A stretch of 64,000 nucleotides of DNA. It comes from a virus. The notes under the pieces are model-generated. The model was not told the DNA's origin. It saw only the letters and a list, made by a program, of their open reading frames with translations, and did no database searches. The stretch lies in the IMG/VR virus record IMGVR_UViG_3300026488_000010. The stretch is one strand, 5' to 3'. Below, in pieces: positions 4,769 to 37,442 of this stretch. Made by a program: the position numbers and the translations under genes. Position 1 is the stretch's first letter. The number at the start of each line of letters is the position of its first letter.

Positions 4769-4780
4769 TTAGTATTTGTT
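4769..4780 (-). promoter_or_regulatory. Late-promoter-like motif (AACA-aatact-AA variant)
   Basis: Member of the recurrent AACA-N6-(T)A motif, 21 nt before the baseplate start codon. Confidence 0.5.
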
Positions 4781-4790
4781 CCGACAAGAA

Positions 4791-4822
4791 ATTTCCCTAA
4801 GGCTTATAAGCCTTAGGGAAAT
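4791..4822 (-). terminator. Perfect 32-bp palindrome, probable terminator of the 4.8-9.2 kb operon
   Basis: atttccctaaggctta|taagccttagggaaat, directly after the holin-like stop codon. Confidence 0.6.
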
Positions 4823-4834
4823 GTTTATATATCG

Positions 4835-5167
4835 TTATTTTCCTCGAATTGCGGCGATAGTTCCACCACCAAAATAAAAGGATGTGACAGCTAGCATAAC
4901 TAACCCAACGTTAAACGCTGTAGCTATAGTTATTAGCTCTTTTATACTAATACCGTAATATTGATATACCAACGATAAAATAATTGCAAATATGTATGTT
5001 ATTATGATGATTAGCGCCATTAGTCTTTGTGCAATTTTAAATGATGTGTACTCTTCAAATAGTGATACAATCATTTCTTCTTTTTTTTCATCTGATATTT
5101 TCAATTCCTGAATAACTTTAAGTTGTTCAGTCATATATTTTTTTGTACCAAATATTTTATTAAACAT
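4835..5167 (-). CDS. Holin-like membrane protein (3TM/GTA-holin-like)
   Basis: 110 aa with hydrophobic helices, SFKIAQRLMAL motif and C-terminal FYFGGG...IRGK, resembling the 'holin of 3TMs' family. Confidence 0.5.
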   Translation of the reverse strand: MFNKIFGTKKYMTEQLKVIQELKISDEKKEEMIVSLFEEYTSFKIAQRLMALIIIITYIFAIILSLVYQYYGISIKELITIATAFNVGLVMLAVTSFYFGGGTIAAIRGK

Positions 5168-5178
5168 TATAATCCTTT

Positions 5179-6375
5179 TTAAAATAGATAATCTAATCTA
5201 AAGTATATTTTATGGGCATATGTATTAACATCTTTTACGGAGTTACCACCTTTCAATTTTTGATAATCAAATATTGAATATTTATAATTTATAGATGCTT
5301 TAATCTTTGGAGTAATAGTGATACCAGTATAAACCTTATATGATGATCCTAAATCTCCCCATGAATATTCATTAGTTGATATTTCATCTGTTACTAATGA
5401 TACCCAGTACTTCGAGGCATAAAAGAATTCAGTACCAATAAATAATTCGTTATTTATTATATCTATATCCTTTTTTGCTCCCAATAATAATGAGTGTCCT
5501 AATCTATCATCTTCTTTTGAAATTTTAACACCTGGTGCAGATACCTCATGTCCTGATGTTAATCTTGTACCATCAAATTTTGTCTGACTCAATGCAAATA
5601 TACCATAGAATAAGTTTCCTGAATATTCACGATTATCATATACATATCCAACACCAATGTTATCCAATGTTCCTAATTCTGCATGCTCTACTGATGACAA
5701 ACTTTCAACTGTATCGTAAATTATCTTTGCATGTGATGCATTAAATCTTACAGTGTGTTTATCATAAGTTTTTGATGCAAATAAAAACGATATATCCGAA
5801 CCTTCTTGTGAGTGCTCATATCGATTAGTTGGTACCAACTCTAGCCTTGTATGTGACGCATATCCTACTTGTATTTTATAATCATTAATATATTTTGTAT
5901 AAAATATACCTGGCATGTTTATATAATATAAAGTCATTAATCCTTCTGATTGTCTTAGACCCGATTTGGTATATTCTGAAAATGCACCTTTCTTAAAAGA
6001 TAATATACCAATTGTTGCGATATCATTTTCTGTTAATTTATAATTAATAGTTGCTTCCGAAACCTCAACAAAATGTTGCTCAAGGACGGGTGCATTATAT
6101 GTTCTCGAGTATCTATCAGTAATAGCAGTAAATGCTACTGCTGATGTCATATAAAAATTATCCATATAATAATCATTATATGATGTTAGATGTATATTAT
6201 ATCCTGAACCTTCTAAGTCTTGTTCACTGTTAGTTTTATAGCAAAATTTGTTTCCAGTTGCGGAACCAGTTACAAATTCAAAATAATTTGTATTTTTATA
6301 ATCATTAGCAAAACTAATTGACGATAGAAATGTTAAGTTTGCCAAGGTTATAAAAACTAAAAATAATTTTTTCAT
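5179..6375 (-). CDS. Outer-membrane beta-barrel protein/porin (DUF3373-like)
   Basis: Signal peptide (MKKLFLVFITLANLTFLSSISFA), alternating amphipathic strands, and C-terminal beta-signal YFRLDYLF ending in Phe. Confidence 0.7.
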   Translation of the reverse strand: MKKLFLVFITLANLTFLSSISFANDYKNTNYFEFVTGSATGNKFCYKTNSEQDLEGSGYNIHLTSYNDYYMDNFYMTSAVAFTAITDRYSRTYNAPVLEQHFVEVSEATINYKLTENDIATIGILSFKKGAFSEYTKSGLRQSEGLMTLYYINMPGIFYTKYINDYKIQVGYASHTRLELVPTNRYEHSQEGSDISFLFASKTYDKHTVRFNASHAKIIYDTVESLSSVEHAELGTLDNIGVGYVYDNREYSGNLFYGIFALSQTKFDGTRLTSGHEVSAPGVKISKEDDRLGHSLLLGAKKDIDIINNELFIGTEFFYASKYWVSLVTDEISTNEYSWGDLGSSYKVYTGITITPKIKASINYKYSIFDYQKLKGGNSVKDVNTYAHKIYFRLDYLF

Positions 6376-6695
6376 TTTTTAACTCCTATCCCTCTTGTTA
6401 ATTTGTCAATGTTAAATCCTTTGCTGATTAAACATTGACCTACAATTTTTTTATCATATATTGAAATATCTTTTATATATAATGATAACTGATCATTATT
6501 TATTGTTCGCTTCCAACCTCGTATCGATCTAATTGACGGATCAATATCATATTTCTTCATCATCTTATCACATCTATTTGCAACAGCGTAATAAGATTCA
6601 ATTCTTCCATCAGCATATGAATCAGCATTTAATGTTATTGATGTCATTGATAATGTGAATATTATATTAGCGATTATAAAAAATAATTTCTTCAT
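6372..6695 (-). CDS. Small exported/periplasmic protein with two cysteines
   Basis: 107 aa; signal peptide ending LNA-D; 4-bp overlap with the porin gene. Confidence 0.6.
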   Translation of the reverse strand: MKKLFFIIANIIFTLSMTSITLNADSYADGRIESYYAVANRCDKMMKKYDIDPSIRSIRGWKRTINNDQLSLYIKDISIYDKKIVGQCLISKGFNIDKLTRGIGVKK

Positions 6696-6722
6696 TTGTG
6701 CCTCTCCTACTCCTAATTTTTC

Positions 6723-8054
6723 CTATTTTTTTATTGCTCTCTCAGCTGGTATAATAATTTCAAATACAGTACCATTTGATGAAGTTTCTCTTAATTGTAA
6801 ATCACCATTGTTTTCACGTAATAATTCTTTATTTAGATATAAGCCTACTCCACGAGCATTTTTATTTTGTTCATTTTTTGATTTAAAATTAAATGTCTTT
6901 TTAATCATTAATATTCTATCATTTAACCAACCTTGTGAATCCTGAACAAACGACTCACCCATATCATTCTTAGATGTATAATATTCTCTAAAAATATCGT
7001 TGTATTTAGATGGCTCTAATGCTAACCCTGTATCTGGGTCGCGCAATCCTGTTCCATTATCAACAATAAATATGTGTAAATTTTCAGATATATCATTATA
7101 TTTACATTGAATATTAATTCTAGTCGCAGATGCTTCTAATGAGTTTCGACAATGATTTGAAACAACATTTAATAAATCGCCATTTTTTAAATTATTTAAT
7201 CCATGTTTAAGTTTGAAGTTTTTAAAAGAATTATCAATATCAATTTTAAAATTTGAGGCTTTATATATAGACATTGAATTTGCACTATAACTAATAATAT
7301 CCATTATTGTTTTATTGCCATTACTATATTTAAGATTCTTAAAATTACTCATACGCTGCAACACTGTATCTATCTGTTCAATACTTGAATATATTAATCC
7401 AAAATCAAAATAATAATAATTTGAACATTTTTCACATGGTATAACTTGTTCTTCCATTAATATTTCTAATTGTTTTATATTTCCTTGAATGATTGCAACA
7501 GGTGTATTTAATTCATGGTGTATGTTTTCAGTCAGTATTTGCATATTCTTTTCTCTTAGCGAATTTGATGTGCTCATCATATCCAACATCTTGCGTTTAC
7601 GCTCTTTGAAATCTATCATTATATATGCTAATGTAAACACTATTAAAAATAGGCCTATAATTCGCACATAACCCATCAATACTTCGCTGATCAACTCAGA
7701 GGTGTCTAAGACTGCGAATATATTATACTCTACTTCATACGCGACGATATTAAAGTCATCTGTTATAAATTCAGCTGGTACAATATAATCTGATCGTTTT
7801 AATATGCCATCTTGTAACACATATCGTGAATCATTAATTATACCAATTTCAGTACAAGAAACTACAGCACATAAGTGCTGTAAATCCAATTCATTATATT
7901 CTTCAATTGTTTTAGTAATCGTTTTACTTGCATTTTCTTGATGAATTTTGTTGATCGTGTAAAAGTTTTTATATAATACGAAACATATTAAACATATATA
8001 AAAGATAGTAAGAGTAAGATATTTTAGAATTGATCGTTTATTTAGATCACTCAT
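6723..8054 (-). CDS. Membrane sensor histidine kinase
   Basis: Two TM segments; H-box ENIHHELNTPVAIIQG; N-box NHCRNSLEA; G1 IVDNGTG; F-box IFREYYTSK; G2 RGVGLYLNKELL; terminal GTVFEIIIP. Confidence 0.9.
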   Translation of the reverse strand: MSDLNKRSILKYLTLTIFYICLICFVLYKNFYTINKIHQENASKTITKTIEEYNELDLQHLCAVVSCTEIGIINDSRYVLQDGILKRSDYIVPAEFITDDFNIVAYEVEYNIFAVLDTSELISEVLMGYVRIIGLFLIVFTLAYIMIDFKERKRKMLDMMSTSNSLREKNMQILTENIHHELNTPVAIIQGNIKQLEILMEEQVIPCEKCSNYYYFDFGLIYSSIEQIDTVLQRMSNFKNLKYSNGNKTIMDIISYSANSMSIYKASNFKIDIDNSFKNFKLKHGLNNLKNGDLLNVVSNHCRNSLEASATRINIQCKYNDISENLHIFIVDNGTGLRDPDTGLALEPSKYNDIFREYYTSKNDMGESFVQDSQGWLNDRILMIKKTFNFKSKNEQNKNARGVGLYLNKELLRENNGDLQLRETSSNGTVFEIIIPAERAIKK

Positions 8055-8710
8055 AATAAATCTTTGTCCATAAATTCTTGAATAGTTGAACCTAATGCTT
8101 CAACTCTATTACCATTTTTATTTATCACATGTTTATATACATGTTGTTCTTCACCCTTGTGTATCAATAGTTTTGTTTCATCTATTTTTACATCGAAAAA
8201 ACTTTCAAACTTTTTAATAAATTTAAATATTTCAGGATTATGTCGATTCAAGGTATGTCCGGTTACGAATCTGATTACACAATCAGGATTATATTTCTTT
8301 AAAATTATAGCAATATCAACTCCATCATATTCAACGCCTTCGATAACACCACCAAGTGTTATATCAAGTAATGCTATATCAATTTTTATATCTTCATTTT
8401 CTAAAAATTGTTTTACAGTAAACCCTGCAAATGATCCAGTACTCAATATAATATTAAATGTTTTATCTATGTCACAACATTGAACGCGTTTTAATTCATC
8501 TTTAATCAGTAAAGCCATTCCTTCAAAATCATCCATGATTAGAATGTTTTTTTTGCTTGGATCATATGTTAATTTAGTAACTTCTGGAATAACAGTTTTA
8601 TAATCAACTTCCCCTAAATCAATAGGTGAATCATATGTCATTGCAGGATTACATAACTCTTTTGTTGTAAATAAACATTTAAATTTTCCAAATATTTTTT
8701 TAAAATTCAT
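8051..8710 (-). CDS. Response regulator receiver protein with no obvious output domain
   Basis: ILIMDD acidic pocket, IALLDITL phospho-acceptor Asp, FVTGH Thr; overlaps the kinase start by 4 bp. Confidence 0.8.
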   Translation of the reverse strand: MNFKKIFGKFKCLFTTKELCNPAMTYDSPIDLGEVDYKTVIPEVTKLTYDPSKKNILIMDDFEGMALLIKDELKRVQCCDIDKTFNIILSTGSFAGFTVKQFLENEDIKIDIALLDITLGGVIEGVEYDGVDIAIILKKYNPDCVIRFVTGHTLNRHNPEIFKFIKKFESFFDVKIDETKLLIHKGEEQHVYKHVINKNGNRVEALGSTIQEFMDKDLL

Positions 8711-9174
8711 TATTTTCCCTTTAAACTTTTTTGCACAGATTCTAATACTGATCCAGTATCTTTTGAGATCGCAGAATACGCTTCTTTATCAATCTCATAT
8801 ATACCAAACATGATAGTTATAATAAATAACCATACTCCCAATATTCTAACAGTATTCTTCCATGTCATAGCATTATATAATTTAGTGCTCCAGGTACTAT
8901 GCTTCTTATTCTCAATTATCATTTTATTAATTGTTTCTGTTTTGATTTGTAATGCTTTATCAAGCATCTGAACAAACTGTTTTTTATTATGTTTATTCGT
9001 CATTTGAAATTCATTATATATCAGTACTAACAATTCATATGTGCTTTCGTCATGTTCTTTTACTTTAATGAAATAGCTCATTAAATCTTGTTGTTCAAAA
9101 TTTGAATTTGTATAATTAAGTATTTCTTGACGTAGCTCAATTAACATTTGTTTCATTCTAATATAGTCTTCCAT
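8710..9174 (-). CDS. Hypothetical membrane protein (N-terminal helical domain, C-terminal TM helix)
   Basis: 154 aa, TM ILGVWLFIITIMFGIYEI, AAGGAG RBS; first gene of the operon. Confidence 0.6.
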   Translation of the reverse strand: MEDYIRMKQMLIELRQEILNYTNSNFEQQDLMSYFIKVKEHDESTYELLVLIYNEFQMTNKHNKKQFVQMLDKALQIKTETINKMIIENKKHSTWSTKLYNAMTWKNTVRILGVWLFIITIMFGIYEIDKEAYSAISKDTGSVLESVQKSLKGK

Positions 9175-9186
9175 GAATCTCCTTTA

Positions 9187-9198
9187 TAATATTTTGTT
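9187..9198 (-). promoter_or_regulatory. Late-promoter-like motif AACA-aaatat-TA
   Basis: Exact AACA-N6-TA, 13 nt upstream of the ATG at 9174. Confidence 0.55.
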
Positions 9199-9262: not shown

Positions 9263-10188
9263 TTACCGTTTCGAACATTCTTCATATCACGCATGAACTC
9301 TTCAAAAAAATTACACTTATCTTGATCAGAATCATTTTCATAAAATTTATAAATCATATCATTTGATTTATAACTTTGATTAATTGTTGTTAATGCATTT
9401 TTACCTCTATCACCAATTATCTGCTTAAATGGTAAATTGATCGGAGATACACCCATAATCTTAATTAACAATCTAATGTTTGTTGTAAAAGGAGCATACA
9501 CTGCTACCCATACAGCATTAAAATATGGTACTTCAATAAAGTCATCTGCATCATGATTCTCATCTTGTTGAATAGGAGGCATTTTAATGAATCCTTTTTT
9601 CAAAGCATCTATATATTTGAACCAGGCTTCATGATATCTAAAGATATCATTATTATAATTCTCTAAAAAATTGATACTAAAATCACCAGCGAAGTGAACC
9701 TTAGATGCATAATTCAAGTTCCGATTCTTTCCAGATACTGATTCATATTCAATGTTTATTTGTGGTATGTCTATATCTGTTGCTAATTGGCCAAATTGTA
9801 GAAGCACACGTTTAAATCCTGTTTCTTTGAATGTGCTCAAATCACTGTTTTTATAAGTATATGAATCATCTAATTTTGCAATATCTTTATCTTCAATTTC
9901 CGATAATGTTTGTACCCATGGGCCAGACACCATATGAATATAATAGTAACCATTAATATGTGGCGACATTTCGCCATATTTTGTAGTTACCTGTTCATTC
10001 ATAAATTTTAAGATATCAGAATTTCTAAGGCCATCAACCTTAGAATCCATCATTTTGTTAATTAATTTTTTATGAGTATTGTTCTCTACTGTTTTTGCTT
10101 CTGGTGAATCAGGTAATTCAATGTCTGAAATATTTCCTGATTTTGATACTCTTAATTTTTGCTGGTCTGTAGACTCAATTGTTTTCAT
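9256..10188 (-). CDS. Tail-tube-fold protein (tube paralog / baseplate-tube junction)
   Basis: HINGYYYIHM...ATDIDIPQINIEYE...FSINFLENYNNDIFRYHEAW parallels motifs in the tube gene at 18333-19112. Confidence 0.55.
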   Translation of the reverse strand: MKTIESTDQQKLRVSKSGNISDIELPDSPEAKTVENNTHKKLINKMMDSKVDGLRNSDILKFMNEQVTTKYGEMSPHINGYYYIHMVSGPWVQTLSEIEDKDIAKLDDSYTYKNSDLSTFKETGFKRVLLQFGQLATDIDIPQINIEYESVSGKNRNLNYASKVHFAGDFSINFLENYNNDIFRYHEAWFKYIDALKKGFIKMPPIQQDENHDADDFIEVPYFNAVWVAVYAPFTTNIRLLIKIMGVSPINLPFKQIIGDRGKNALTTINQSYKSNDMIYKFYENDSDQDKCNFFEEFMRDMKNVRNGKI

Positions 10189-10197
10189 AAAATACCT

Positions 10198-11373
10198 TTA
10201 TTTTTCAAATTCTGCTTTACAAAATGCGCCCTTACCTCTTAAAGTGATAATAAGTAATAATACCTTTCTTAACTTTAATTTATTAGATGAACTACCGGTC
10301 TTCATAAGACCTTTATACATTCTCTCAAGCATTTTGTCAATATATGATTTTAAATTTTGTACTTTTGTATCAGTACCTTTTGATGATGTTATCTTAGAGA
10401 CTGTTTGAACAACATTTAATCCACACATTTTAGATTCTTCTGTTTTTGTGATACTAAATAACAATTCATATATATTTTTTAAATCTTCTTCATTTTTATA
10501 ATCATCCAAAAATGTTTTTACACCATCTAAAAATTTATCAGACACTGCAAATGGTTCAGCTTTGAGATATTTTCTATCTTTATCAGTAAGTTTTAATTGA
10601 TGATTAATTAAATTCTTTTGTAATTTATCAACTAAAGTCACAACTTTAGTTGCATCAATTTCTGATACCTCTCTACCGTTTCCCTCAGACCCTGCTGACA
10701 TAATTGAACGATTCCCATTATTATGTGCTTCATAATAATGATCTTTTACGCCTCTAAATATTTGATCCATTCTTCCCCAAGATTGCATTAATAATACAAC
10801 TAGTCCCATCGTAGGATGTGCTGGATCTTTTTCAATATATGAAAAATATTTATTATCTAATGTTGGTGCAAAATAGTTAGCAATAGCATTAAATGGATTT
10901 GGATGTTTTTTAAAAGTATGTGAACTTCTAAAAACTGATTGTATCAAATATTGAGCAATTTCTTCTTGACAACCATTTGGCATGTATTTATATTGTCTAC
11001 CATTAAAAACTTTAACATATATAAGGGCAACAGCAAACTGACGTAATACATCATCTTTTGATCGAACTCCAATATAATATACTAATGATAATGTTTGATA
11101 ATATAAAGAACTATACATTCTAGATTCTGGGTGAAATCCAATTTCTGCGAATGCTGCAATCATCTGTCTATCAGATATACCGAAGATTTTTAAAAGTTTT
11201 TTATCTATTCCATTTGGTGTACGTAAAGCGTTACAAAAACTAGAATGGCCCAATGAGTCATTATTTAGCTTTGATACTACTGCGATGAGAATCTTTTTGA
11301 TCTCATCATATAGATTTTTATTAGCAAGTATTTTATCTGCAACAAACTCTATCTCTTTCGGCATTTTATGCAT
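10198..11373 (-). CDS. Putative sigma-like promoter-specificity subunit of a phage non-virion RNA polymerase (AR9 gp226-like)
   Basis: The segment QYKYMPNGCQEEIAQYLIQSVFRSSHTFKK...GRMDQIFRGVKDHYYEAHNNG resembles my recollection of the gp226 family. The matching promoter motif occurs throughout the region. Not confirmed by search. Confidence 0.5.
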   Translation of the reverse strand: MHKMPKEIEFVADKILANKNLYDEIKKILIAVVSKLNNDSLGHSSFCNALRTPNGIDKKLLKIFGISDRQMIAAFAEIGFHPESRMYSSLYYQTLSLVYYIGVRSKDDVLRQFAVALIYVKVFNGRQYKYMPNGCQEEIAQYLIQSVFRSSHTFKKHPNPFNAIANYFAPTLDNKYFSYIEKDPAHPTMGLVVLLMQSWGRMDQIFRGVKDHYYEAHNNGNRSIMSAGSEGNGREVSEIDATKVVTLVDKLQKNLINHQLKLTDKDRKYLKAEPFAVSDKFLDGVKTFLDDYKNEEDLKNIYELLFSITKTEESKMCGLNVVQTVSKITSSKGTDTKVQNLKSYIDKMLERMYKGLMKTGSSSNKLKLRKVLLLIITLRGKGAFCKAEFEK

Positions 11374-11397: not shown

Positions 11398-12162
11398 TTA
11401 TACGAGGGCTCTAGAGATCCCCGCAAATTTATCACAACCTGATTCTTTTAACCCTGTTGATTCTTCAAATAGTTTTGGTGCAACCATTGAAACCATTGCA
11501 ATAACTGATTCTTGAATTTCATCTTTAAGTACTTGAGCATTTTTAGTAAACACATCAAAATATTCAGCATCTTGTTGATTGATGAATGCATCAGTTCTTT
11601 CTTCAAGTACTTCTGGAAGAATAATATGTTTACAATTTTGAACTAAAGTGTTCTCAAATAGTGCATATTTTAAAAATAGTTCCGTATCAACTTCAGATGT
11701 AACACCAGCAGCGATTGCAGCTTCAGTTAATAGACGAGCTTCTGATTTATAAACTTCTAAAAGTGTTCCCTCAAATAATGGCAGGGCAAAATCTTTATTA
11801 ACAGCGTCTGTAAAATTCTTAGAATAAATTTCAGAAATTGTAGACTCAGTTAGTTCTTGAGTATCAACTGCTTGTGAACAAGTACGAGGTTTCATATTAA
11901 CTTCTTTAAATATTCCCATAGTCGATTCAAGTAATAGACCAAGCTTTTCAAAATATGCTTCTTTCTCTGATTCTTCTAATACTGAAGTTAATCCAGCGAA
12001 AAATCTACCATCATTTTCTAATTTTGCTTCAAGTTTATCAGCATTAAATACATCTGCACCAATTGTTGGTTGATTATATTTTGTAGACTCTTCTAAAAGG
12101 TCAAGACTCTTTCTACCTGCATTAGCAGCTTCGAACATAAATTGATTAGTTCCTAAATTCAT
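11398..12162 (-). CDS. Probable internal head protein with prohead-protease sites
   Basis: 254 aa, many hydrophobic-x-E sites (MFE, LLEE, VLEE, LLES, LFEG, LFEN, LFEE); preceded by the late motif. Confidence 0.5.
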   Translation of the reverse strand: MNLGTNQFMFEAANAGRKSLDLLEESTKYNQPTIGADVFNADKLEAKLENDGRFFAGLTSVLEESEKEAYFEKLGLLLESTMGIFKEVNMKPRTCSQAVDTQELTESTISEIYSKNFTDAVNKDFALPLFEGTLLEVYKSEARLLTEAAIAAGVTSEVDTELFLKYALFENTLVQNCKHIILPEVLEERTDAFINQQDAEYFDVFTKNAQVLKDEIQESVIAMVSMVAPKLFEESTGLKESGCDKFAGISRALV

Positions 12163-12175: not shown

Positions 12176-12198
12176 GGTAGCTAAGCTACCAATTTGTT
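12176..12198 (-). promoter_or_regulatory. Late-promoter-like motif AACA-aattgg-TA overlapping a short hairpin
   Basis: Motif at 12187-12198; hairpin ggtagc-taa-gctacc at 12176-12190. Confidence 0.55.
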
Positions 12199-15055: not shown

Positions 15056-15748
15056 TCATATCTTATTGCATGTACTATTGAATTCACAGTACATGCAATG
15101 CTTAAGATTTGGCTGCAATAATTCTAATTTTTTTGTTGGTTTTATATCTCTTATCAATTGTTGGATATTTAATAGTTGAATATACTTAATATCAAGATCA
15201 ATATTATTTAAAATAAAATCTATAATATTATCATATGCTTCAGGTATAAACACTGTTGAATCTTTATGATATAAGGTTCCTTCTAATATGTGTGATGATA
15301 TTTCCATATCACCTTGAATAGATACATTCAATTTAAACGATGCAATGTTATAATTACATTTCTTTAAATAATCCAATAAGTTATGAATTGATGATAAACT
15401 ATTCACTCTATGAATTTGTTCTAGTTCAGTACTAAAATGATTCAAATATTTTTTATCTAATTTTACAAGATTAGAATTATGTTTAATATATAAATTACAC
15501 ATCGGGTAAAATTCCAATATTGTAAAATTGTTTGTTATTTCTGATACTTCTAACGTGTCAAGATTTATAACACTTTTTGAAGTAGGATTAGGAACATCAG
15601 AAACTTTTTTGAGTGTTTCTGATGTTTCTGATGTTTCTGATGTTTCTGATAGTTGCTCAGAAACTGATATATCAACAACAGGTGCTTTAGCAACAACTTC
15701 TAAATTATTAACTGTTTTTTTTGGCTTAATCTGTTGCAATATATTCAT
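15056..15748 (-). CDS. Hypothetical protein with (SET)4 repeat and C-terminal PxxxxCxxCxFxxxC motif
   Basis: Tandem tgtttctga x4 at 15614-15649. The C-terminal Cys pattern resembles the Cas4/AddB-type Fe-S staple. Confidence 0.55.
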   Translation of the reverse strand: MNILQQIKPKKTVNNLEVVAKAPVVDISVSEQLSETSETSETSETLKKVSDVPNPTSKSVINLDTLEVSEITNNFTILEFYPMCNLYIKHNSNLVKLDKKYLNHFSTELEQIHRVNSLSSIHNLLDYLKKCNYNIASFKLNVSIQGDMEISSHILEGTLYHKDSTVFIPEAYDNIIDFILNNIDLDIKYIQLLNIQQLIRDIKPTKKLELLQPNLKHCMYCEFNSTCNKI

Positions 15749-17620: not shown

Positions 17621-18157
17621 TTAATACCCTTCTAATTTTAATTGTTCTTTAACAGAATCTAACAATACAGGACTACTTCCTGGGGACTGTGTCTGTGTAT
17701 TTATTAGTTCATGCATTTGACCCATAAGTTTTTCATATGAATCTTCATTTTTATTATCTTCTTTCTTAGCATTCGTTAATTTAACGTGTGCATTGATTTT
17801 ATGATTTTCTATATCAATTGTCATCTTAATATATTTTTGTATCATATCTTCATATTTGATTAACATCTCTTGTACTTGAGCTAATGTTTCAAATTGTGTT
17901 AAAATGTGTGAGGAATGGATTCCTGCTAATTTAAAATTCTTCTCAGCTGTATAATGTTCAACTGATTCATTACTTCGAACAATCATATCATCTATAATTT
18001 TTTCTTTAGTTTTTAATGAAGTTATTTTAATCTCTGCAGCTTTAATTTTATCAGATATATAATTTAATTGTTTATTTAAATTAAAACCATAGTTGATAAT
18101 ATTAAATTCTGAATCGCTTGTGATAGTTTCATGATCTACTACTTTTCCTGTTGCCAT
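17621..18157 (-). CDS. Coiled-coil hypothetical protein (start reassigned)
   Basis: The ORF track starts at 18421, but the ATG at 18157 has an AAGGAG RBS and a promoter motif. The track's extension overlaps the tube gene and a repeat element. 178 aa. Confidence 0.6.
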   Translation of the reverse strand: MATGKVVDHETITSDSEFNIINYGFNLNKQLNYISDKIKAAEIKITSLKTKEKIIDDMIVRSNESVEHYTAEKNFKLAGIHSSHILTQFETLAQVQEMLIKYEDMIQKYIKMTIDIENHKINAHVKLTNAKKEDNKNEDSYEKLMGQMHELINTQTQSPGSSPVLLDSVKEQLKLEGY

Positions 18158-18168: not shown

Positions 18169-18180
18169 TGAATATTTGTT
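18169..18180 (-). promoter_or_regulatory. Late-promoter-like motif (AACA-aatatt-CA variant)
   Basis: 12 nt upstream of the ATG at 18157. Confidence 0.45.
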
Positions 18181-18198: not shown

Positions 18199-18257
18199 CT
18201 ATTTCTATACTAACTATCTTTATCGATAAAGATCGTTTTGAGTTAACATAGAAATAG
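18199..18257. repeat. Palindromic repeat element (A-B'-A inverted)
   Basis: ctatttctatactaact-atctttatcgataaagat-cgtttt-gagttaacatagaaatag; nearly the same element as 44545-44607. Confidence 0.85.
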
Positions 18258-21335: not shown

Positions 21336-21347
21336 TAATTATTTGTT
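21336..21347 (-). promoter_or_regulatory. Late-promoter-like motif AACA-aataat-TA
   Basis: 60 nt upstream of the sheath start. A degenerate repeat A half-site (atttctatatgaattc) lies at 21361-21376. Confidence 0.6.
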
Positions 21348-26687: not shown

Positions 26688-26900
26688 TTACATCATATCT
26701 TTCATGCGCGAATTTTTCTGCTGAGCTATCTTCTTTTGAGAATCTAGCATTGCTTCGCGCATATATATTGGTAATGAAAAATATTCAGAAAAGGATAATG
26801 TTAGTCCATCATAAGCCACCGCTGACTGAAATCGAACTAACTCATACTCATAAATTGAGTGATGATCCTCATCAGTTGTAAACAGATAACGCTTTACGAA
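26688..26900 (-). CDS. Unannotated 70-codon ORF, probable +1 frameshift extension of the assembly chaperone
   Basis: Reads FVKRYLFTTDEDHHSIYEYELVRFQSAVAYDGLTLSFSEYFSLPIYMREAMLDSQKKIAQQKNSRMKDMM*. There is no ATG until codon 47. It is in the +1 frame from TTC-TTT-CGT at 26904-26896. Confidence 0.6.
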   Translation of the reverse strand, partial: FVKRYLFTTDEDHHSIYEYELVRFQSAVAYDGLTLSFSEYFSLPIYMREAMLDSQKKIAQQKNSRMKDMM

Positions 26901-27762
26901 AGAAGTCTTGTTCAGGGTTCACATTTTCCCATTTGAATACAGGTGATTCACAGTGAATATTATCACATTGGATATTTAAATAAAAATTAGGAGAATAATC
27001 AACCAATGGTTTAACTGTTGTATCTTCTAATAATTTTGATTGTAATTCAAGAGGCATCCCTTTTATAGTTGGAATAATATCTTTAATTTTATTCTCAAGG
27101 ACCAAAAGTTCATTACCTGTTTGAATCTCTAAACGTTTGATATAAACACAAAACATTTCAAGAGTGTTTAAAATATCATTGTTGTTTTCAACTGAATCAC
27201 GCATTTCAGAAGTTTCTTTTTCTAATAGAATTTGCATTCTATCTGCTTCAGTTGGCATCTTATATACCACTTTAAATCCATCAATAATAACGGATTCAAT
27301 TTCATACTTATCAAAATCAGCAGATTCATCCCAACCCTTTCCAATAGTATCTTCATGTACTAATTCAGACGGTGGTAATTCATATGTATTTTTTGTTCCA
27401 CAGCTTGGACATGTAATTACTTTTTCTGGTAATTTAGTAAACGTTGAATCAAGTAATGCGTACACAAGTAAAGCTTTATCAGGTGGTGTTAAATGATTAA
27501 TAAAATCATCAGCTGATGAAAATTGTAAAGAATCAAATGATGTATGGTTATATAATAGTTCATTGAATGCTTTGATGAACTTTGAACCTGATGTTCGCAT
27601 AGTTTTTTGAACTAAATCTTCTGCACCTGTTACTGGTGTAACTGTTGCTTTTGTCTGAAGAATTGGTAAATCAACTTCAACCTCTCGTGTGCCTGCTAAT
27701 AAAGCCAATGCTGCAATTGCATTTGAGCTACCGGTTTTCGGTGCTACAATATCGTCTAACAT
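26872..27762 (-). CDS. Baseplate hub / tail assembly chaperone (T4 gp26-like)
   Basis: LTPPDKALLVYALL...ITCPSCG and terminal IQCDNIHC...DFFR, typical of the T4_baseplate family. Confidence 0.75.
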   Translation of the reverse strand: MLDDIVAPKTGSSNAIAALALLAGTREVEVDLPILQTKATVTPVTGAEDLVQKTMRTSGSKFIKAFNELLYNHTSFDSLQFSSADDFINHLTPPDKALLVYALLDSTFTKLPEKVITCPSCGTKNTYELPPSELVHEDTIGKGWDESADFDKYEIESVIIDGFKVVYKMPTEADRMQILLEKETSEMRDSVENNNDILNTLEMFCVYIKRLEIQTGNELLVLENKIKDIIPTIKGMPLELQSKLLEDTTVKPLVDYSPNFYLNIQCDNIHCESPVFKWENVNPEQDFFRKALSVYN

Positions 27763-27802: not shown

Positions 27803-27814
27803 TAATTATTTGTT
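27803..27814 (-). promoter_or_regulatory. Late-promoter-like motif AACA-aataat-TA
   Basis: 41 nt upstream of the ATG at 27762. Confidence 0.6.
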
Positions 27815-27840: not shown

Positions 27841-27995
27841 ATTTCTATAGTAACTCATAACGATCTTTAAAGATAGAAAATAAACGATCTTTAAAGATCG
27901 TTTTATAATTCGCCTTATAGTGTTGCATAATAGTCACTGTAAGAGATTCAAAATATTTTTCTATCTTTAAAGATCGTTTTTGAAACGATCTTTAA
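27841..27995. repeat. Cluster of palindromic repeats (A plus about 4 B copies)
   Basis: A atttctatagtaactc at 27841-27856. B copies at 27859-27876, 27882-27903 (perfect aaacgatctttaaagatcgttt), 27961-27981 and 27983-27995 (half). Confidence 0.85.
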
Positions 27996-27996: not shown

Positions 27997-29526
27997 CTAC
28001 ATTGTTTTAAAATATTTATAATTACCAGAATCATAAATAACTCGATAACCGTTAATTAACATATTTTGTGTAGCAGTTTTAGATTGATCAAATATCAAAC
28101 CTAATTTTTCTATTTTATGTTTTTGATATTTGAGTCTTGATTCAACGCGATCTTTAATATAAAACATATTTGGAGGCGAGATATTAATAAATTCAAAACC
28201 TATAGTATTATATAAATTTCCTTTGCTCCATCTACGATTTGCATACGAAACCATTAAATTGTATGAATAATTATTATCATAATATTTTAACATTTTGCTT
28301 GCTCCACCTACTACAACAGTATTAAGTTTTGAACACATTCTATATAGTTCAACATCTGCATCTTTATCCATTCTCGGTTTTCCAAATGTCATTATGCTTA
28401 CTAATTCATCATTATAATATAAACCTATTTTTGTCGCAGCATTTATATATCCTTGTAAATGATTCATTTTTAAAAAATCTCTTGCTTCAGAAATAGAGAC
28501 CACTTTAGTTTGACATTTTCTAGCATGTATTTTCTTTGATAATCCAAAAGCGTTTTTTAGAATACTTTTCCATAATATCTTATTTTCTATCCATTCATTT
28601 TCAAATATATGAAATAATTGATAACCATGTTTCAAACACTCTTCCGTTTTAATTAAATGTCGCTTACTTTGATAATATTTATCACCTTGGTTCTGATTGA
28701 CGTTATTTGTTCCAAATGAATGCCAATACAAACCATTAAATTCAATTGCGATTTTATGTTCTGGAATTAATATATCAATTTCTAAAGGTTTAATTAAAGT
28801 TCTATCACTTTGGATAATATCGATTCCAAGTGATAGAATGTATTCTGCAATCTCTTGTTCATATGATGAAACCAACCTCTTTTTATATGATATCCCAAAA
28901 TATGCCATTCGTTTATTAATATTTGAACGTGATATATTAAAAAAACTGATCAACCCATTTATGTCTAAAATATCATTTTTTAAAAAATGTTTAATTATGT
29001 ACTCTTTATTATATTTATCTATATTTTTAAAATGTTTATATGTTGATGAACAGGCTCCATATTTTGACATATTTGTCGCTCTAACCTTTTTTCTAATTTC
29101 GTTATTCTTCATTGGATTGTCAACACCATATTTTATTATATTTGTTTCTTTTGTTTTTTTAACTTTTTGTTTAATTTTATTATCATCCCAAGTATTTGAG
29201 ATCTGACGTCTAATTTTAGAATCTTTGTTTCGACATCTGACAGAACAGAACATTCTAAAGATATTTTTATCATTATCAAACTTAACATTGTTTTGACATT
29301 CAACATTGTTACATTTATGTATAACTTTGCTTTCATATTTTTGAAGAATATATAAATAGATCCTTGCTTTATCTGAATATTCTGCCGGTGTTGATATATG
29401 AATATCATTTAATAGTTTATCAGATATGTTTTTAATATTGATTTTTCGTATTTTTAAAACGGTGTCTCTTGTGTCTATACTTGATGTATAACTTCTAATT
29501 AATTGTATAATTTGTGTAATTTGCAT
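27997..29526 (-). mobile_element. Free-standing Hef-like homing endonuclease (Zn-ribbon/helical repeats, DUF559/Vsr-like nuclease, GNAT/Mom-like C-domain)
   Basis: CNNVEC...FCSVRC; TNIIKYGVDNPM repeats; YEQEI...LEIDILIP..IAIEFNGLYWHS...KTEECLKHGYQLFHIFENEW; FLKMNHLQG...GGASKML...SYANRRWS. ATG 29526 has an AAGGA RBS (ORF track starts at 29556). Confidence 0.75.
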
Positions 29527-29586
29527 ACTGGTCCTTTTGCGATTATTTTTGACCATAAACTATTCCGATACAGTTTAAAAAAGCCG

Positions 29587-29622: not shown

Positions 29623-29661
29623 ATTTCTATAGTACGATAAACTATCTTTAAAGATAGTTTA
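29623..29661. repeat. Repeat element (A half-site plus 24-bp B palindrome)
   Basis: atttctatagta... then taaactatcttt|aaagatagttta at 29638-29661, immediately after the MCP stop. Confidence 0.8.
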
Positions 29662-31239
29662 TTAGTTTAGACCTAAAGCAGTTTCATAACCTTCAAGTTC
29701 TATTGTACCAATAGCTTCATTTCTAACAATACCAATCCAGTTACGAGATTTAATGAAAGAACGTTTTACACTATCAGTTGTCTCAGTAATCACATAAAGT
29801 GGTTTGTGAGAGATTTCAACGATTGAACTCTGAGCTAAAGACTCTGATTTCGGAATAAGGTGAATGTAAGCATCACCAACAGCGTGAGAAGTAATAACTT
29901 CTAGTTTTGAGAATGAACCCATTTCACCACTAAATCCAGTTTCACCTTCATAACCGTCAAATTTAACAGCGAAGTTTTGCATAGATTTAAGAACTGCAGC
30001 AGAATCAATACCAGTTACTAGATATTTGATTTCAAAACGAGTTGATTTACGAATTTTCTCTTGAAGAGCAATAAGTACAGGAATGATATTTTTGAAGATA
30101 TCTTGTACGCTTGCAGGTTTAGTACCATTTTGATCAACAATACCACCAACAGTAGCAAGGTTAATTTTACGATAGTGACCATATGCCTTAGCAGCTGGAA
30201 TATTAGACTCAAGTAAATCAGCGATTTCGAAATCTCTGTTAAGTTTGATTTGATCTTTAACATAACCTTTAAGTTGTGCAATGATATCTAAGTTGTAAAG
30301 AGATTTCCAATCTTGGATAACTTCTTCAATATTTTCAATTTCAAAAGAATCTTCAATATCACAGTTGATATCAAGTACATCTTGTTTTGGACGAGCTTTA
30401 GTTACAGCAAGACCATTACCAACACCCATAATACGAAGCTTAGCATCAATACTAACTGAAGCAGCAGCAACACCACTCATAGAGATAGCTGACCATGTAA
30501 TATCACCAGATTCAAAGTTAATTTGACCTTGGATTTTAAAAGTTGCAACAACTGCATCACCAGCAGTATTTTTAACAATAATATCTTCAGCAGCAAAGTT
30601 ACCACGTGCATCAGCAACAGCGATTAAAGGAACAACTGCATCTTCTGCACCATTACCATTAAAGTCACCATTAACAACAACAGAAACAACTTTGAAGTTA
30701 CGTTTATTAAGACGGAATTGACTAAAGTTAGTAGTACCTGTACCAGCAAAAAGCTCAGTAAATGCATTACCAGATTGTGCAACTGTAATTACTTCATGTC
30801 CAGTACGGATTGATTTAGTAGCAGTTGGAAATTCATACTCAGAAACATTACCTTTGTGATCGATAACTTTAGAGATCCATTTAAGACGTGGAATAGTCAT
30901 AGTTGGAACATTTGATGGGAATACAGAGATAACTTTACTTAAAAGAGGATCAGAGTAAATATCAACTAACATCGGGAATGATGTAACAGCATAAGTAATA
31001 GCATCAGGAGAACCTAAAAGACTAGCAGACTCTTCTAATAGAGACTCACGTTGACGATCGAACATAGACTTGATTCTACGAGAATCAGACTCTTCAAGAC
31101 CTTCTAAAAGTTTGTTTGCATAAGAATCATAAGTAACTTGATCAGTTACGATTGACATTGCACTTGTAGCTTCTTCGAATAGCTCACTGTTTTCTGTGAT
31201 GTATGCGTTGAAGTTTTCTAAAATAATATTTTCATTCAT
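29662..31239 (-). CDS. Major capsid protein (HK97 fold, T4 gp23-like)
   Basis: 525 aa downstream of the prohead protease; N-terminal propeptide with LE/EE cleavage sites; IEEVIQDWKSLYNLDIIAQL...IKLNRDFEI segment typical of gp23-like MCPs. Confidence 0.9.
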   Translation of the reverse strand: MNENIILENFNAYITENSELFEEATSAMSIVTDQVTYDSYANKLLEGLEESDSRRIKSMFDRQRESLLEESASLLGSPDAITYAVTSFPMLVDIYSDPLLSKVISVFPSNVPTMTIPRLKWISKVIDHKGNVSEYEFPTATKSIRTGHEVITVAQSGNAFTELFAGTGTTNFSQFRLNKRNFKVVSVVVNGDFNGNGAEDAVVPLIAVADARGNFAAEDIIVKNTAGDAVVATFKIQGQINFESGDITWSAISMSGVAAASVSIDAKLRIMGVGNGLAVTKARPKQDVLDINCDIEDSFEIENIEEVIQDWKSLYNLDIIAQLKGYVKDQIKLNRDFEIADLLESNIPAAKAYGHYRKINLATVGGIVDQNGTKPASVQDIFKNIIPVLIALQEKIRKSTRFEIKYLVTGIDSAAVLKSMQNFAVKFDGYEGETGFSGEMGSFSKLEVITSHAVGDAYIHLIPKSESLAQSSIVEISHKPLYVITETTDSVKRSFIKSRNWIGIVRNEAIGTIELEGYETALGLN

Positions 31240-31266: not shown

Positions 31267-31278
31267 TAAGTATTTGTT
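31267..31278 (-). promoter_or_regulatory. Late-promoter-like motif AACA-aatact-TA
   Basis: 28 nt upstream of the MCP start. Confidence 0.6.
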
Positions 31279-31334: not shown

Positions 31335-32126
31335 TTATATTTTAAAAGAAAAAGTTTTAATTGTGTTTTTAGTTAATGATAAATCTATTAAGTAATCAAT
31401 TGACTCTTCAATTGTTCCTTGAATACATGAACCATCTAATGTACAAGCTCTAACCTGTTCACCATCTAGATTGAATTGTGCATAACCTGCGCCTTCAGAT
31501 TCCATAATGATTTCTGTGATTTGAGATTTGTGTTCTTTTAGTTCTTTTACAAGAGCTAAAGGGTCTGTGCTTTCATTAATGAATTCATAGATTACTGCTG
31601 AGGAGTGTGACGGATTAGAAACAACATCAAATGTTAATGCTTTTAATCCTACAGGGCTAACCATTGTAACACCAGTTGGTGATTTAGTACTTGCTCCAAA
31701 TGCTCTTAATGAAAAACCTATTGTAACTTTATCTTTTAATAAACGGAAGAAATTAATTCCTTTATCATTAGTTAATGTTTCACATTCGGCTGTGATAAAC
31801 TTACCATCATATTCAAGTTTTGTATATAATACACAAGAATCTTGAAGAGAGATGGTGCTTGATCTTTTCATTTTAGCTGCAGTGTCTCCTTGAGGAGACG
31901 GATGATCCATTTCACCTAATAGTTTTCTTTCAGAAGCTTTAGGTCCAAGTTGAGCAACAATTGTTCTGAGAACCTCATCAGAATAAGATCTACCGTTATT
32001 ATTGGTAACACCTTGTTCCTGTAGTTTAGCTTTGAACTTAATTTTTTGTTCTCCACCAAACGTCGACTCTTCTAGTAACTCTACTTGAGGAATGTAAGCA
32101 CTTTCGTGAATGATATTAAAATTCAT
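31335..32126 (-). CDS. Prohead core protease (T4 gp21-like)
   Basis: NNNGRSYS, LLGEMDHP (catalytic His), GFSLRAFG (Ser), FDVVSNPS. Confidence 0.9.
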   Translation of the reverse strand: MNFNIIHESAYIPQVELLEESTFGGEQKIKFKAKLQEQGVTNNNGRSYSDEVLRTIVAQLGPKASERKLLGEMDHPSPQGDTAAKMKRSSTISLQDSCVLYTKLEYDGKFITAECETLTNDKGINFFRLLKDKVTIGFSLRAFGASTKSPTGVTMVSPVGLKALTFDVVSNPSHSSAVIYEFINESTDPLALVKELKEHKSQITEIIMESEGAGYAQFNLDGEQVRACTLDGSCIQGTIEESIDYLIDLSLTKNTIKTFSFKI

Positions 32127-32186: not shown

Positions 32187-32198
32187 TAATTATTTGTT
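32187..32198 (-). promoter_or_regulatory. Late-promoter-like motif AACA-aataat-TA
   Basis: 61 nt upstream of the protease start. Confidence 0.6.
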
Positions 32199-32220
32199 AC
32201 TGCCGTTATTTTTTACAGTA

Positions 32221-32418: not shown

Positions 32419-32419
32419 A

Positions 32420-32620: not shown

Positions 32621-32639
32621 TTATAACCTTTTATTGTTT

Positions 32640-32957: not shown

Positions 32958-32969
32958 ATCTCTCTCCTA

Positions 32970-33503: not shown

Positions 33504-33512
33504 TTAATACTC

Positions 33513-35428: not shown

Positions 35429-35437
35429 CTAATCCTC

Positions 35438-36235
35438 CTATACAATTGACCAGTCATAGACTAGTTCTGAACCACTATAATTTTTTGTTTTAATCCAAAA
35501 ACCTATAATTTCATCATTATCTGTTGAGTCCACCATTTTAAGTGGAAAATTATGTTTCGTTAAAGGTGATGTTACACCTGGAATATATGATAAGAATTCC
35601 GATGATTGTGTATCAGTTGCTGGATAAGCATTGAACACTTCAAATATATCTGAACCAACTACTGAGTATTTATTTTCAATATATTGTACAAAATCTTCAT
35701 GTATCTTACCATCAACTGGAACAGCACATAACATCCATTTATCTTTTTGAAGTAAAATACTTCCAGATAAAGATCCAGCAACAGTTCCTAGATAAGGTAC
35801 TTGCATTAGATGACTTTCACCATCTATCATATAAATACTTAAACCTAAATCTGACGGTACATGATAATAAAAACCGTTTCCAAGTTCAGTTAAAGTTCCA
35901 GTTTCAACGATTGTACCATCATCTTTCATTCTTTCAATAGAGATAGTTTTTCCAGTTTTGCCATGATAGTGAATGAATTTTACTTCTGGTTGGCCAACAT
36001 TGAAGATTACCGGATATTCATTGAATTTACCCATAATGATACAATCTTCATCAGGTGTATCAATTAATGTTTTTTTGTGACCATTTCCAATATTTGAAAT
36101 CGTTGGAGATGCTGGACTAATATCAGTAAATGATAAATCATTGCCGAATTTATAAAGACTTAATCCTTCAGCTTCCGAAGATGTTGAAAATATAGGATAT
36201 TGTGAGTTACGATTTTTGAGCGCAGATGTTCTCAT
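35438..36235 (-). CDS. Hypothetical virion appendage protein
   Basis: 265 aa, ELGNGFYYH Ig-like segment, preceded by promoter motif and AAGGAG. Confidence 0.5.
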   Translation of the reverse strand: MRTSALKNRNSQYPIFSTSSEAEGLSLYKFGNDLSFTDISPASPTISNIGNGHKKTLIDTPDEDCIIMGKFNEYPVIFNVGQPEVKFIHYHGKTGKTISIERMKDDGTIVETGTLTELGNGFYYHVPSDLGLSIYMIDGESHLMQVPYLGTVAGSLSGSILLQKDKWMLCAVPVDGKIHEDFVQYIENKYSVVGSDIFEVFNAYPATDTQSSEFLSYIPGVTSPLTKHNFPLKMVDSTDNDEIIGFWIKTKNYSGSELVYDWSIV

Positions 36236-36245
36236 ATAATCTCCT

Positions 36246-36323
36246 TTAATATTTGTTTCTTGTAAATGAAATTTATTACATGAATTTTTGCATGAATTTT
36301 TGCATGAATTTTTGTATGAATTT
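36246..36323 (-). promoter_or_regulatory. Late-promoter-like motif (AACA-aatatt-AA) preceded by 12-bp tandem repeats
   Basis: Motif at 36246-36257; catgaatttttg x~3.7 at 36279-36323. Confidence 0.45.
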
Positions 36324-36385
36324 CACGACAAGAAAATTCTATTGGAATAAAAATTCCAATAGAATATAGTACTAAAAGTATTAGC

Positions 36386-37390
36386 TTACGCGAATACTTT
36401 AAATGAAGTAGCAGAACTACCAGCGTCAACTTTACCTTCAATAGTTAAAAGTTTAGCATCAACAGAATCAAAACGAGAAACAAGTTCAGTTTTAATTGCA
36501 ACAAGACCATTTGCAGCATCATTAAGAACATTAAGAATGTTTGTTTCACCATCAGTAACAGCTGTATTAACACCATCGATTAATGCTTTAAGTGCTGCAA
36601 GACCGAAGCCGGCATCTTCTAAAGTTGCCTTATTTGCATCAACAACAATTTGAAGAGCATCTGTTTTTCCAGTAATTACACCTTCAGATGTAGTGATTGC
36701 ATCAGTTACTGCTGTTTGCGCTGAACTAATATTACCTTGAAGAGTAACAAGAGCCGCAGCTAAGCTAGATTCTTTAGCAACACCTGGGTTAGTTGCATCA
36801 TAGAATGGATTAGCAGTTGTACCATCAGCTAAGAATTCTGTACCAAGAAGCATGTTCTCAATATCATCAGTATACCCTTCTAGTGCAGAAAGGCCTGAAC
36901 CAGAGTTAAGCGCATCATTAATTTGTGTAACAAAATCAAGTACTGTTGTAGCAGTACCAGAAGTATCACCATCATCAATTAGTGCAGAAATCGCTGCAAT
37001 ATCATTTTTAAGTGTTACAAGAGTATCACCATTAAGACCATCAACATCAGCAGCAACTGTTGCTAAAGTAGTAGTAAGATCATCAACAACAAGTTTAACA
37101 TCATCAATTGTAGCATCAACTACAACAACTGGGGCTTCGTGATTTCCCATACCAATTGTTGCATTATTGATTACGATAGTGTAATCACCTTTTGCCGCAA
37201 TAGTCGTTTCAACCATATAAAGACCTGCAGTATTTGCATCTTCTGTAAACGCGTTAGCGATGTCTGTTTTAGCACCTGTAGCATCATTAATATAGTAAGC
37301 GCTGAAGTTAGCAGCTTGACCTGTTAAATCTGCGTTTGTTCCGAGTTTTGTTTTGAAAGCAACTCCTGCTTTTTTTACTGAATAGCTCAT
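36386..37390 (-). CDS. Ig-like domain plus long coiled-coil fibre/whisker protein
   Basis: N-terminal GLYMVETTIAAKGDYTIVINN, then Ala/Thr/Asp heptads; C-terminal ATSFKVFA. Confidence 0.6.
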   Translation of the reverse strand: MSYSVKKAGVAFKTKLGTNADLTGQAANFSAYYINDATGAKTDIANAFTEDANTAGLYMVETTIAAKGDYTIVINNATIGMGNHEAPVVVVDATIDDVKLVVDDLTTTLATVAADVDGLNGDTLVTLKNDIAAISALIDDGDTSGTATTVLDFVTQINDALNSGSGLSALEGYTDDIENMLLGTEFLADGTTANPFYDATNPGVAKESSLAAALVTLQGNISSAQTAVTDAITTSEGVITGKTDALQIVVDANKATLEDAGFGLAALKALIDGVNTAVTDGETNILNVLNDAANGLVAIKTELVSRFDSVDAKLLTIEGKVDAGSSATSFKVFA

Positions 37391-37430
37391 ATAATTTCCT
37401 TTAATTTTATTTCCATAATAGTATTTTTGA

Positions 37431-37442
37431 TATTAATTTGTT
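37431..37442 (-). promoter_or_regulatory. Late-promoter-like motif AACA-aattaa-TA
   Basis: 41 nt upstream of the ATG at 37390. Confidence 0.55.

Follow-up and report, generated by a model that had tools for sequence, protein, structure and literature searches.

A recurrent motif upstream of structural genes

The 64,000-nucleotide (nt) stretch analyzed here, referred to as the window, belongs to the IMG/VR virus record IMGVR_UViG_3300026488_000010 and carries a short recurrent motif, AACA-N6-TA or a close variant of it, in front of genes of its structural region, including those for the major capsid protein, the head maturation protease and the tail sheath. Every long open reading frame (ORF) of the window lies on the minus strand, and the G+C content is 25-34%. 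Via its major capsid protein, the window was linked to the ENA metagenome contig ena:ERZ27262635:k141_177482 (286,633 bp), of which it represents the reverse complement of approximately record positions 74,634-138,633. We read 179 kb (62%) of this contig (record 1-138,633 and 152,870-193,286); the motif statistics were run on 119.5 kb, comprising the window and 55 kb past its end, with intergenic DNA making up 5% of the sequence. Four relatives from IMG/VR (G001-G004), with capsid identities of 84, 52, 51 and 49%, served for comparison; two of the four are 97-100% complete.

The initial annotation had placed ten copies of the motif before structural-region genes, and all ten are present on the minus (coding) strand. 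As proposed there, seven are exact matches to AACA-N6-TA and three (4769, 18169 and 36246) end in AA or CA. All ten open with AACAAA and nine with AACAAAT, and the distance between motif and start codon ranges from 10 to 60 nt. The first copy (AACAAATACTAA, 4769-4780) directly follows a hairpin plus TTCTTGT and stands 20 nt before the ATG of ORF 2391-4748, which encodes a virion-region protein of 785 amino acids (aa). The variant AACAAAATATTA (9187-9198), the only site with A instead of T at position 7, lies 12 nt before ORF 8710-9174 (154 aa), and AACAAATTGGTA (12187-12198) lies 24 nt before ORF 11398-12162 (254 aa), in an operon that also takes in ORF 10198-11373. For the site AACAAATATTCA (18169-18180), the true start of the downstream ORF 17621-18157 is the ATG at 18157, which is preceded by AGGAGATTATT and located 11 nt from the motif. 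The most frequent version, AACAAATAATTA, is found 59 nt before the tail sheath gene (motif 21336-21347; gene 19123-21276, minus strand, 717 aa, PHROG tail sheath 5.9e-14), 40 nt before ORF 26872-27762 (296 aa; motif 27803-27814) and 60 nt before the gene of the head maturation protease (motif 32187-32198; gene 31335-32126, assigned by PHROG). The major capsid protein gene (29662-31239, minus strand, 525 aa, PHROG major head protein 3.3e-9) follows AACAAATACTTA (31267-31278) at a distance of 27 nt. The two remaining sites are AACAAATATTAA (36246-36257), 10 nt before ORF 35438-36235 (265 aa), and AACAAATTAATA (37431-37442), 40 nt before ORF 36386-37390 (334 aa).

As had been cautioned, AACA-N6-TA by itself is unenriched in the window, with 100 copies found versus 103 +/- 10 in shuffled sequences. 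The extended motif, in contrast, is well above chance. Within intergenic DNA, AACAAAT is the top-ranked 7-mer, found in 16 of 75 intergenic regions, and its 17 copies there compare with 2.4 +/- 1.6 in dinucleotide shuffles (maximum of 9 in 500). The longer form AACAAAT-N3-TA occurs 11 times in intergenic regions, three times in ORFs and never in antisense orientation (odds ratio 70, Fisher p 1.6e-12). The three full-consensus matches inside ORFs are located at 15409-15420 (AACAAATTCATA, minus strand), which represents either an internal promoter or a chance match, and at 38843-38854 and 59464-59475. Altogether, 19 upstream sites fit AACA(A/a)A(T)-N-TA, giving the logo AACAAAT(A/T)nTTA(A/g), with nothing conserved further upstream and no -35-like element. 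Copies are also found beyond the end of the window and hence outside the interval 4769-37442; over the 179 kb read, 17 full motifs in sense orientation fall into the structural block. Besides capsid, protease, sheath and other structural genes, the genes behind the motif include a virion-type RNA polymerase (RNAP) beta gene. A literature search for the word AACAAAT in connection with phage and promoter revealed nothing relevant. Late promoters of Bacillus phage AR9 have the consensus AACA-(6N)-TA/G, the last base being the start site (PMC5312081), and the AR9-type feature AACA-(6N)-T(A/G) before late genes is present in this phage. The initial annotation was thus right to describe a positionally specific, sense-strand signal before structural genes that fits the AR9 late consensus in sequence and spacing.

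The motif is also found in the closest relative. In G001, it precedes the genes orthologous to those for the capsid, protease, sheath, 785-aa and gp13-like neck proteins, the polymerase beta-N ortholog and further genes, and AACAAAT occurs in 20 upstream regions. The ortholog of the 785-aa protein (72% identity) is preceded by AACAAATATTAA, the sheath ortholog (71% identity) by AACAAATAATTA, the same 12-mer as in the window, and the ortholog of ORF 26872-27762 by AACAAATAGATA; AACAAATAATTA stands before the capsid ortholog (84% identity) and AACAAATAAATA before the protease ortholog (88% identity). Around the motif, the spacers of the two phages have otherwise diverged. The more distant G004 shows a looser form, AACAAA-N4-TA, with 20 copies found versus 2.5 expected (z 11.6). 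Retention in G001 despite diverged spacers, together with the changes in G004 and G002, shows that the late signal is real, is under selection and turns over within the clade.

A second, AT-rich motif precedes other gene classes

The contig bears a second motif, in which a palindrome (AACGATCTTTAAAGATCGTT / CTATCTTTAAAGATAG type) runs on into GTTAnTATAGAAATAAT, with the early-type word TATAGAAAT. In the window, TANYATAGAAAT occurs eight times versus 0.9 expected. The two motifs divide the genes by class: the late-type motif precedes structural genes, and the early-type motif precedes genes of nucleotide metabolism, anti-defence and other non-structural functions. In the nucleotide-metabolism block, only one AACAAAT lies ahead of a gene start, and it faces the one gene in the opposite orientation.

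In the window, early-type motifs on the minus strand are located directly before a Tad6-like gene (motif 44545-44556; gene 43782-44540) and, as a pair with palindromes at 61965-62016, before the radical-SAM gene block starting at 61945. Further copies lie at 18201-18212, just upstream of the late site 18169, and at 27841-27852 (TACTATAGAAAT), where copies of the palindrome AACGATCTTTAAAGATCGTT precede the motif; the elements at 18244-18255 and 44596-44607 are on the plus strand. Outside the window, the same contig has the early-type motif before ThyX, the ribonucleotide reductase (RNR) operon, a helicase and the tRNA region. Both motifs occur together at three genes (18201/18169, 27841/27803 and record 16,621/16,635), and the pair at 27841 and 27803, which stands before a single ORF, may form a dual promoter. 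Continuously expressed genes of AR9 likewise bear both promoter classes (PMC5312081). A long AT-rich early motif combined with a short late motif is the pattern of jumbo phages with two RNA polymerases (PMC7598289), and an AT-rich early-type motif distinct from the late signal, a trait of RNAP-encoding jumbo phages, is present here. By analogy, the element is probably an early promoter read by the virion polymerase.

Two further observations concern these intergenic regions. Directly downstream of the capsid gene, an HNH/homing endonuclease gene is inserted (27997-29556, 519 aa, PHROG 2.5e-120), which has its own early-type motif (29623-29634, minus strand). In addition, hairpins that are unrelated to each other run straight into TTCTTGT(C/G) rather than into a simple run of T, and often a late motif follows shortly downstream. 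TTCTTGT is found on the minus strand at 4790, 7860, 18293, 36334 and 62139, and its intergenic count is 7 versus 0.18 expected. These hairpins may constitute a terminator signal specific to a phage polymerase.

Phage relationships and RNA polymerase genes

A megablast search of the phage collection with a 6-kb part of the window gave zero matches, and an exact 42-mer likewise had none in IMG/VR. At the protein level (tblastn), the capsid protein matched solely jumbo phages of the Staphylococcus S6/MarsHill type and Listeria phage LPJP1, with 22-26% identity, and the tail sheath had Yersinia phage phiR1-37 (g149) as its sole match. The S6/MarsHill type, LPJP1 and phiR1-37 are uracil-DNA jumbo phages (PMC7598289). 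Since all capsid and sheath matches belong to this group, the association with AR9 made in the initial annotation was reasonable.

That annotation had also assumed an RNA polymerase of the phage's own, and this holds for one set of genes. Approximately 50 kb past the window end, the contig encodes a beta pair of 530 aa and 1036 aa, by which it is assigned to the RNAP-encoding jumbo phages (phiKZ/AR9 supergroup); a second (non-virion) set and a beta' gene were not located in the 62% of the contig read. The 1036-aa ORF matches PF00562 (1.3e-9) and bacterial beta (2.4e-25), and in tblastn its product hit 255 jumbo-phage records, the strongest including phiR1-37 g099, Fusobacterium jumbo phages, LPJP1 and Staphylococcus phage SA1; against the AR9 non-virion beta-C protein gp089 it scored 4e-4. 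In this contig as well as in G001, the pair lies within the structural block and behind a late motif, and from this location and motif it would be expected to form the virion polymerase.

A further set occurs in relatives. A non-virion-type split beta/beta' core was found in G002, G003 and G004. G002 and G004 have two beta sets, the second comprising a roughly 720-aa beta plus a beta' gene that contains PF00623. In G004, four genes form a cluster encoding beta'-N, beta'-C, a 395-aa beta-N and beta-C, of which the beta-C matches the AR9 non-virion polymerase chain 7S00_C (7e-10) and the phiKZ chain 7OGP_C (1e-5). The 395-aa protein was assigned as beta-N because its homolog is fused to beta-C in a natural 981-aa protein. 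This metagenomic protein, P0320, is a natural fusion of non-virion beta-N and beta-C, and the beta split is therefore not fixed in the group.

Genes called in record 1-20,701 include none with an RNAP family. A scan of IMG/VR with the beta'-N alignment yielded 17 loci, none of them of this subclade, and the TATAGAAAT copies at these loci are not promoter-positioned. The 107 kb of the contig outside the part read correspond to the part also missing from G001. As no beta' gene has been seen so far in the 179 kb, polymerase genes must lie in these remaining 107 kb.

Gene content points to thymine-containing DNA

The initial annotation had further suggested that deoxyuridine might replace thymidine in this DNA. 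The gene content argues against this part of the proposal. The contig encodes ThyX (6.8e-22), a dimeric dUTPase (dUTPase_2, 8.1e-26) and a dNMP kinase (DNMK, 7.9e-9), which are clustered with a class I ribonucleotide reductase (L059:10001-13991, record ~159,800-163,790), and ThyX is present in all four relatives. Conversely, none of the six uracil-DNA phages searched (AR9, BpSp, LPJP1, Machias, SA1 and phiR1-37) has ThyA or ThyX, and dUTPase_2 is absent from 5/5 uracil-DNA phages tested. In the ThyX of this phage, the signature reads RHRIVLQELS, one residue shorter than the canonical RHR-X7-S. Judging by these genes, a phage that turns dUMP into dTMP and hydrolyzes dUTP is set up to exclude uracil from its DNA. 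Uracil exclusion is the opposite of the strategy of PBS2 and AR9, as described in the older PBS2 literature. Given ThyX and dUTPase on the contig, we consider uracil DNA unlikely; thymine is most likely the base present, and recognition of the motif would then be independent of deoxyuridine, unlike in AR9. In the same gene cluster, the RNR large subunit (L059:15879-19634, 1251 aa) harbors an intein with a LAGLIDADG domain.

Searches for the promoter specificity subunit

Promoter recognition in AR9 takes place on the template strand, through gp226 acting with beta-N, and depends on uracils at -11 and -10; the gp226 exchange V206G makes the enzyme accept T at -10 (PMC7598289, PMC9209446). Subunits of the gp226 type are defined by a 2.1bis helix with a conserved valine. 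In a tblastn search of the phage collection, gp226 homologs were found only in AR9/PBS1, BpSp, LPJP1, the Staphylococcus jumbo phages and phiR1-37. A gp226 hidden Markov model (HMM) gave no match among the ORFs of this phage (179 kb), and an alignment of six gp226 members gave none in G001-G004. In profile-profile comparison (hhalign) with 122 ortholog groups and 82 singletons, gp226 reached at most 1.8% probability, although a structural homolog may lie beyond sequence detection. A profile built from gp68 of nine phages likewise had no hmmsearch match and an hhalign probability of at most 2.2%, which is a weak absence given that this family diverges to 8-11% identity (PMC9209446); as a control, the gp68 and gp226 profiles recognized each other with 74.6% probability. 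With gp226 found neither in the 179 kb nor in the four relatives, the assumption that this phage uses the same system as AR9 is not supported at the level of the specificity subunit.

ORF 10198-11373 had been put forward as a gp226-like candidate and was rejected. Its product has no sequence match in the PDB, no Pfam family and no match to the gp226 or gp68 profiles. The AlphaFold model is all-helical, with a mean predicted local distance difference test score (pLDDT) of 77.7, and a Foldseek search against the PDB gave a best E of 0.16 and no match to a gp226, gp68 or sigma-factor fold. The gene also lies within a late operon, a position ill-suited to a factor needed for late transcription.

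Host and accessory genes

The host is likely a Gram-negative bacterium with low G+C content. The cellular proteins among the matches to G001 ThyX are from Campylobacterales, those annotated as ThyX being 48-49% identical to the query, and a 398-aa protein encoded in the window (5179-6375) matches DUF3373 (8.8e-11); together, the DUF3373 protein and the Campylobacterales relatives of ThyX hint at a host in the Campylobacterota.

Several accessory functions are encoded on the contig. Anti-defence genes are scattered over it, namely those for a Tad6-like protein (anti-Thoeris, window 43782-44540), Apyc1 (anti-Pycsar, L061:166-993), Acb1 (anti-CBASS, L092:3755-4273) and a phosphoribosyl pyrophosphate (PRPP) synthetase with NAPRTase (L061:5880-9062), a pair that suggests NAD+ resynthesis. 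An actin-like protein (ALP_N and MreB-like_C; L091:405-1316, record 9,790-10,701) adjoins the tRNA/non-coding RNA region and could be a cytoskeletal element with a role comparable to that of PhuZ in nucleus-forming jumbo phages. Finally, window positions 41005-61945 form an island with genes for a UDP-glucose dehydrogenase N-domain, an epimerase/dehydratase, a split transketolase-like protein, several radical-SAM proteins and a glycosyltransferase. This island has no intergenic late motifs and starts behind early-type motifs.

Comparison with known systems and interpretation of the motif

Among known systems, the motif most directly recalls AR9/PBS1. The core AACA, the 6-nt spacing to TA and the lack of a -35 element are shared (AACA at about -11 to -8, TA at -1/+1), as is the location before virion genes including those of the virion polymerase (PMC5312081, PMC5449584, PMC9209446). 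The 12-mer AACAAATAATTA, the commonest version in our phage, occurs identically in AR9 upstream of the minor virion structural protein gene g214 (L009:7030-7041 region). Separate early motifs, longer and AT-rich, occur in both phages, which belong to the same supergroup of RNAP-encoding jumbo phages. However, the core is a fixed 7-mer, AACAAAT, in our phage, whereas AR9 conserves only AACA and T(A/G). The non-virion enzyme of AR9 has five subunits including gp226, a family that was not detectable here, and with ThyX and dUTPase encoded, the need for uracils at -11/-10 cannot hold here. A further difference from AR9 is the likely host, Gram-negative with low G+C, the ThyX relatives being Campylobacterales proteins. 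With phiKZ, the phage shares the predicted thymine DNA, AT-rich early promoters and, in its relatives, two multisubunit polymerases with split beta and beta', including the match of G004 beta-C to the phiKZ chain. In contrast, the late signal of phiKZ consists only of TATG at the start, with no upstream AACA (PMC7598289), and the gp68 family, part of its non-virion enzyme, is not detectable in this clade.

Based on these analogies, AACAAAT(A/T)nTTA is probably, though by no means surely, the late (structural-gene) promoter of a jumbo phage with multisubunit RNA polymerase genes of its own. The virion polymerase injected with the DNA would then read the AT-rich early promoters (palindrome and TATAGAAAT), as in AR9 and phiKZ, and these promoters would serve the genes for nucleotide metabolism, anti-defence and modification. 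A polymerase synthesized in the course of infection, together with a putative specificity factor, would start at or next to the final A of AACAAAT-N3-TA, so placing the late start 10-60 nt ahead of the leading gene in every late operon.

Several observations speak against this interpretation. In the 179 kb read, we found neither a non-virion polymerase of this phage nor a beta' gene; this is a weak negative, given that tblastn with the relatives' beta and beta' proteins gave no hits at all and also missed the known beta gene. Two protein searches, with G002 beta-C and G004 beta'-N, turned up numerous relatives yet nothing from the 286,633-bp contig, and no fifth, sigma-like subunit, whether of the gp226 or the gp68 family, could be detected in the clade. 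At two sites, the presumed start leaves a leader of 10-11 nt that opens at the Shine-Dalgarno sequence. G002 is without the motif, and in front of its genes AACA words are depleted (z -5); the signal is therefore not shared by the whole clade. Promoter function and start site, moreover, are deduced from position and analogy only.

These points bear differently on the alternatives. The full AR9 model, with deoxyuridine in place of thymidine and a gp226-type subunit of the non-virion polymerase reading 3'-UUGU-5' in the template, would account for the exact AACA-N6-TA, for the 12-mer shared with AR9 and for the nearest cultured relatives of capsid, sheath and beta all being uracil-DNA phages (S6/MarsHill type, LPJP1 and phiR1-37). 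We nevertheless give it hardly any credence: the contig encodes ThyX, dimeric dUTPase and dNMP kinase, with ThyX in 4/4 relatives, and the uracil-DNA phages examined are without ThyA and ThyX (all six) and without dUTPase_2 (the five tested), while gp226, which is confined to uracil-DNA phages in the phage collection, could be detected neither in this phage nor in its relatives with HMM and profile-profile searches. As a weaker point, the phage was assembled from several ordinary metagenomes, and uracil DNA is reported to fail in standard amplified libraries.

Another possibility is that a phage factor redirects the host RNAP, as gp55/gp33 of T4 do at TATAAATA, and that the phage polymerase acts early only. 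Like T4 late promoters, the motif consists of one short A/T-rich element some 10 nt ahead of the start, near -10 and with no -35, before structural genes; the phage has some T4-like genes (gp13-like, rIIB), and its own non-virion polymerase was not located. Yet TATAAATA contains nothing equivalent to the invariant C at position 3, and neither sigma70 region 2 nor a T4 gp55-like late sigma gene was found in the four relatives, the T4 control being positive (2.5e-70). In addition, the phage encodes its own polymerase, the relatives bear a full non-virion-type core, and the virion-type polymerase genes lie behind the motif; this is the arrangement of AR9 and phiKZ, where the non-virion enzyme transcribes the genes of the virion enzyme (PMC5449584). 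We therefore regard a redirected host enzyme as unlikely. Slightly less likely still is that the window phage and G001 lost, or never had, a separate non-virion enzyme, and that one and the same core is injected and later re-synthesised, an early phage-encoded specificity protein switching it from TATAGAAAT to AACAAAT promoters. This would explain why two independent homology searches revealed neither a beta-C nor a beta'-N of the non-virion type on the 286,633-bp contig or on a 260-kb contig of the G001 type, and why none appeared in the 62% of the contig read. However, no beta' of any kind was seen, which requires the remaining 107 kb to hold polymerase genes in any case; the searches cover set length ranges and would miss fused, split or intein-bearing genes (the RNR of this phage has an intein); and the non-virion set is present in every other clade member sampled.

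The motif could also be no promoter but an RNA- or DNA-level signal at operon starts, such as a processing site, a part of the hairpin-TTCTTGT terminator module or a regulator site. Several copies immediately follow a hairpin and TTCTTGT, and the restriction to the sense strand would suit an RNA element equally well. Many copies, though, have no adjacent hairpin, the 10-60-nt spread to the start codon argues against a translation signal, the gene classes are cleanly split from those of a second promoter-like motif, and the motif matches an experimentally mapped promoter class of a related phage group (PMC5312081). A non-promoter role appears improbable to us. On balance, the best-supported reading is a late promoter that is specific to the phage and served by a phage polymerase, and we favor it with some reservation.

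Implications for jumbo phage transcription

For MarsHill, MEME failed to recover a late-type motif, whereas the late-type signal of this phage is readable straight from the genome and confirmed by a relative. Together, the two motifs allow a simple assignment of genes to early and late classes in this uncultured phage group. As far as gene content and profile searches tell, the clade has an AR9-like late promoter architecture along with thymine DNA and no recognizable gp226/gp68 subunit. An AR9 consensus in a phage that, by its gene content, makes thymidine separates the AACA-N6-TA architecture from the uracil requirement, two features tied together in the work on AR9. If a phage polymerase reads the motif, the clade would offer a natural test of how T and U are discriminated in template-strand promoter recognition, and there would be a new specificity subunit to find.

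A more far-reaching idea, which we put forward tentatively and consider possible but not probable, is that the -10-like AACA element with TA at the start is ancestral to more of the jumbo-phage non-virion polymerases, and that the clade with ThyX and dUTPase represents a natural thymine-reading version whose specificity subunit is unrecognizable by sequence. If so, the clade would be the natural counterpart of the engineered gp226 V206G enzyme, and the uracil dependence of AR9 would be a late specialization.

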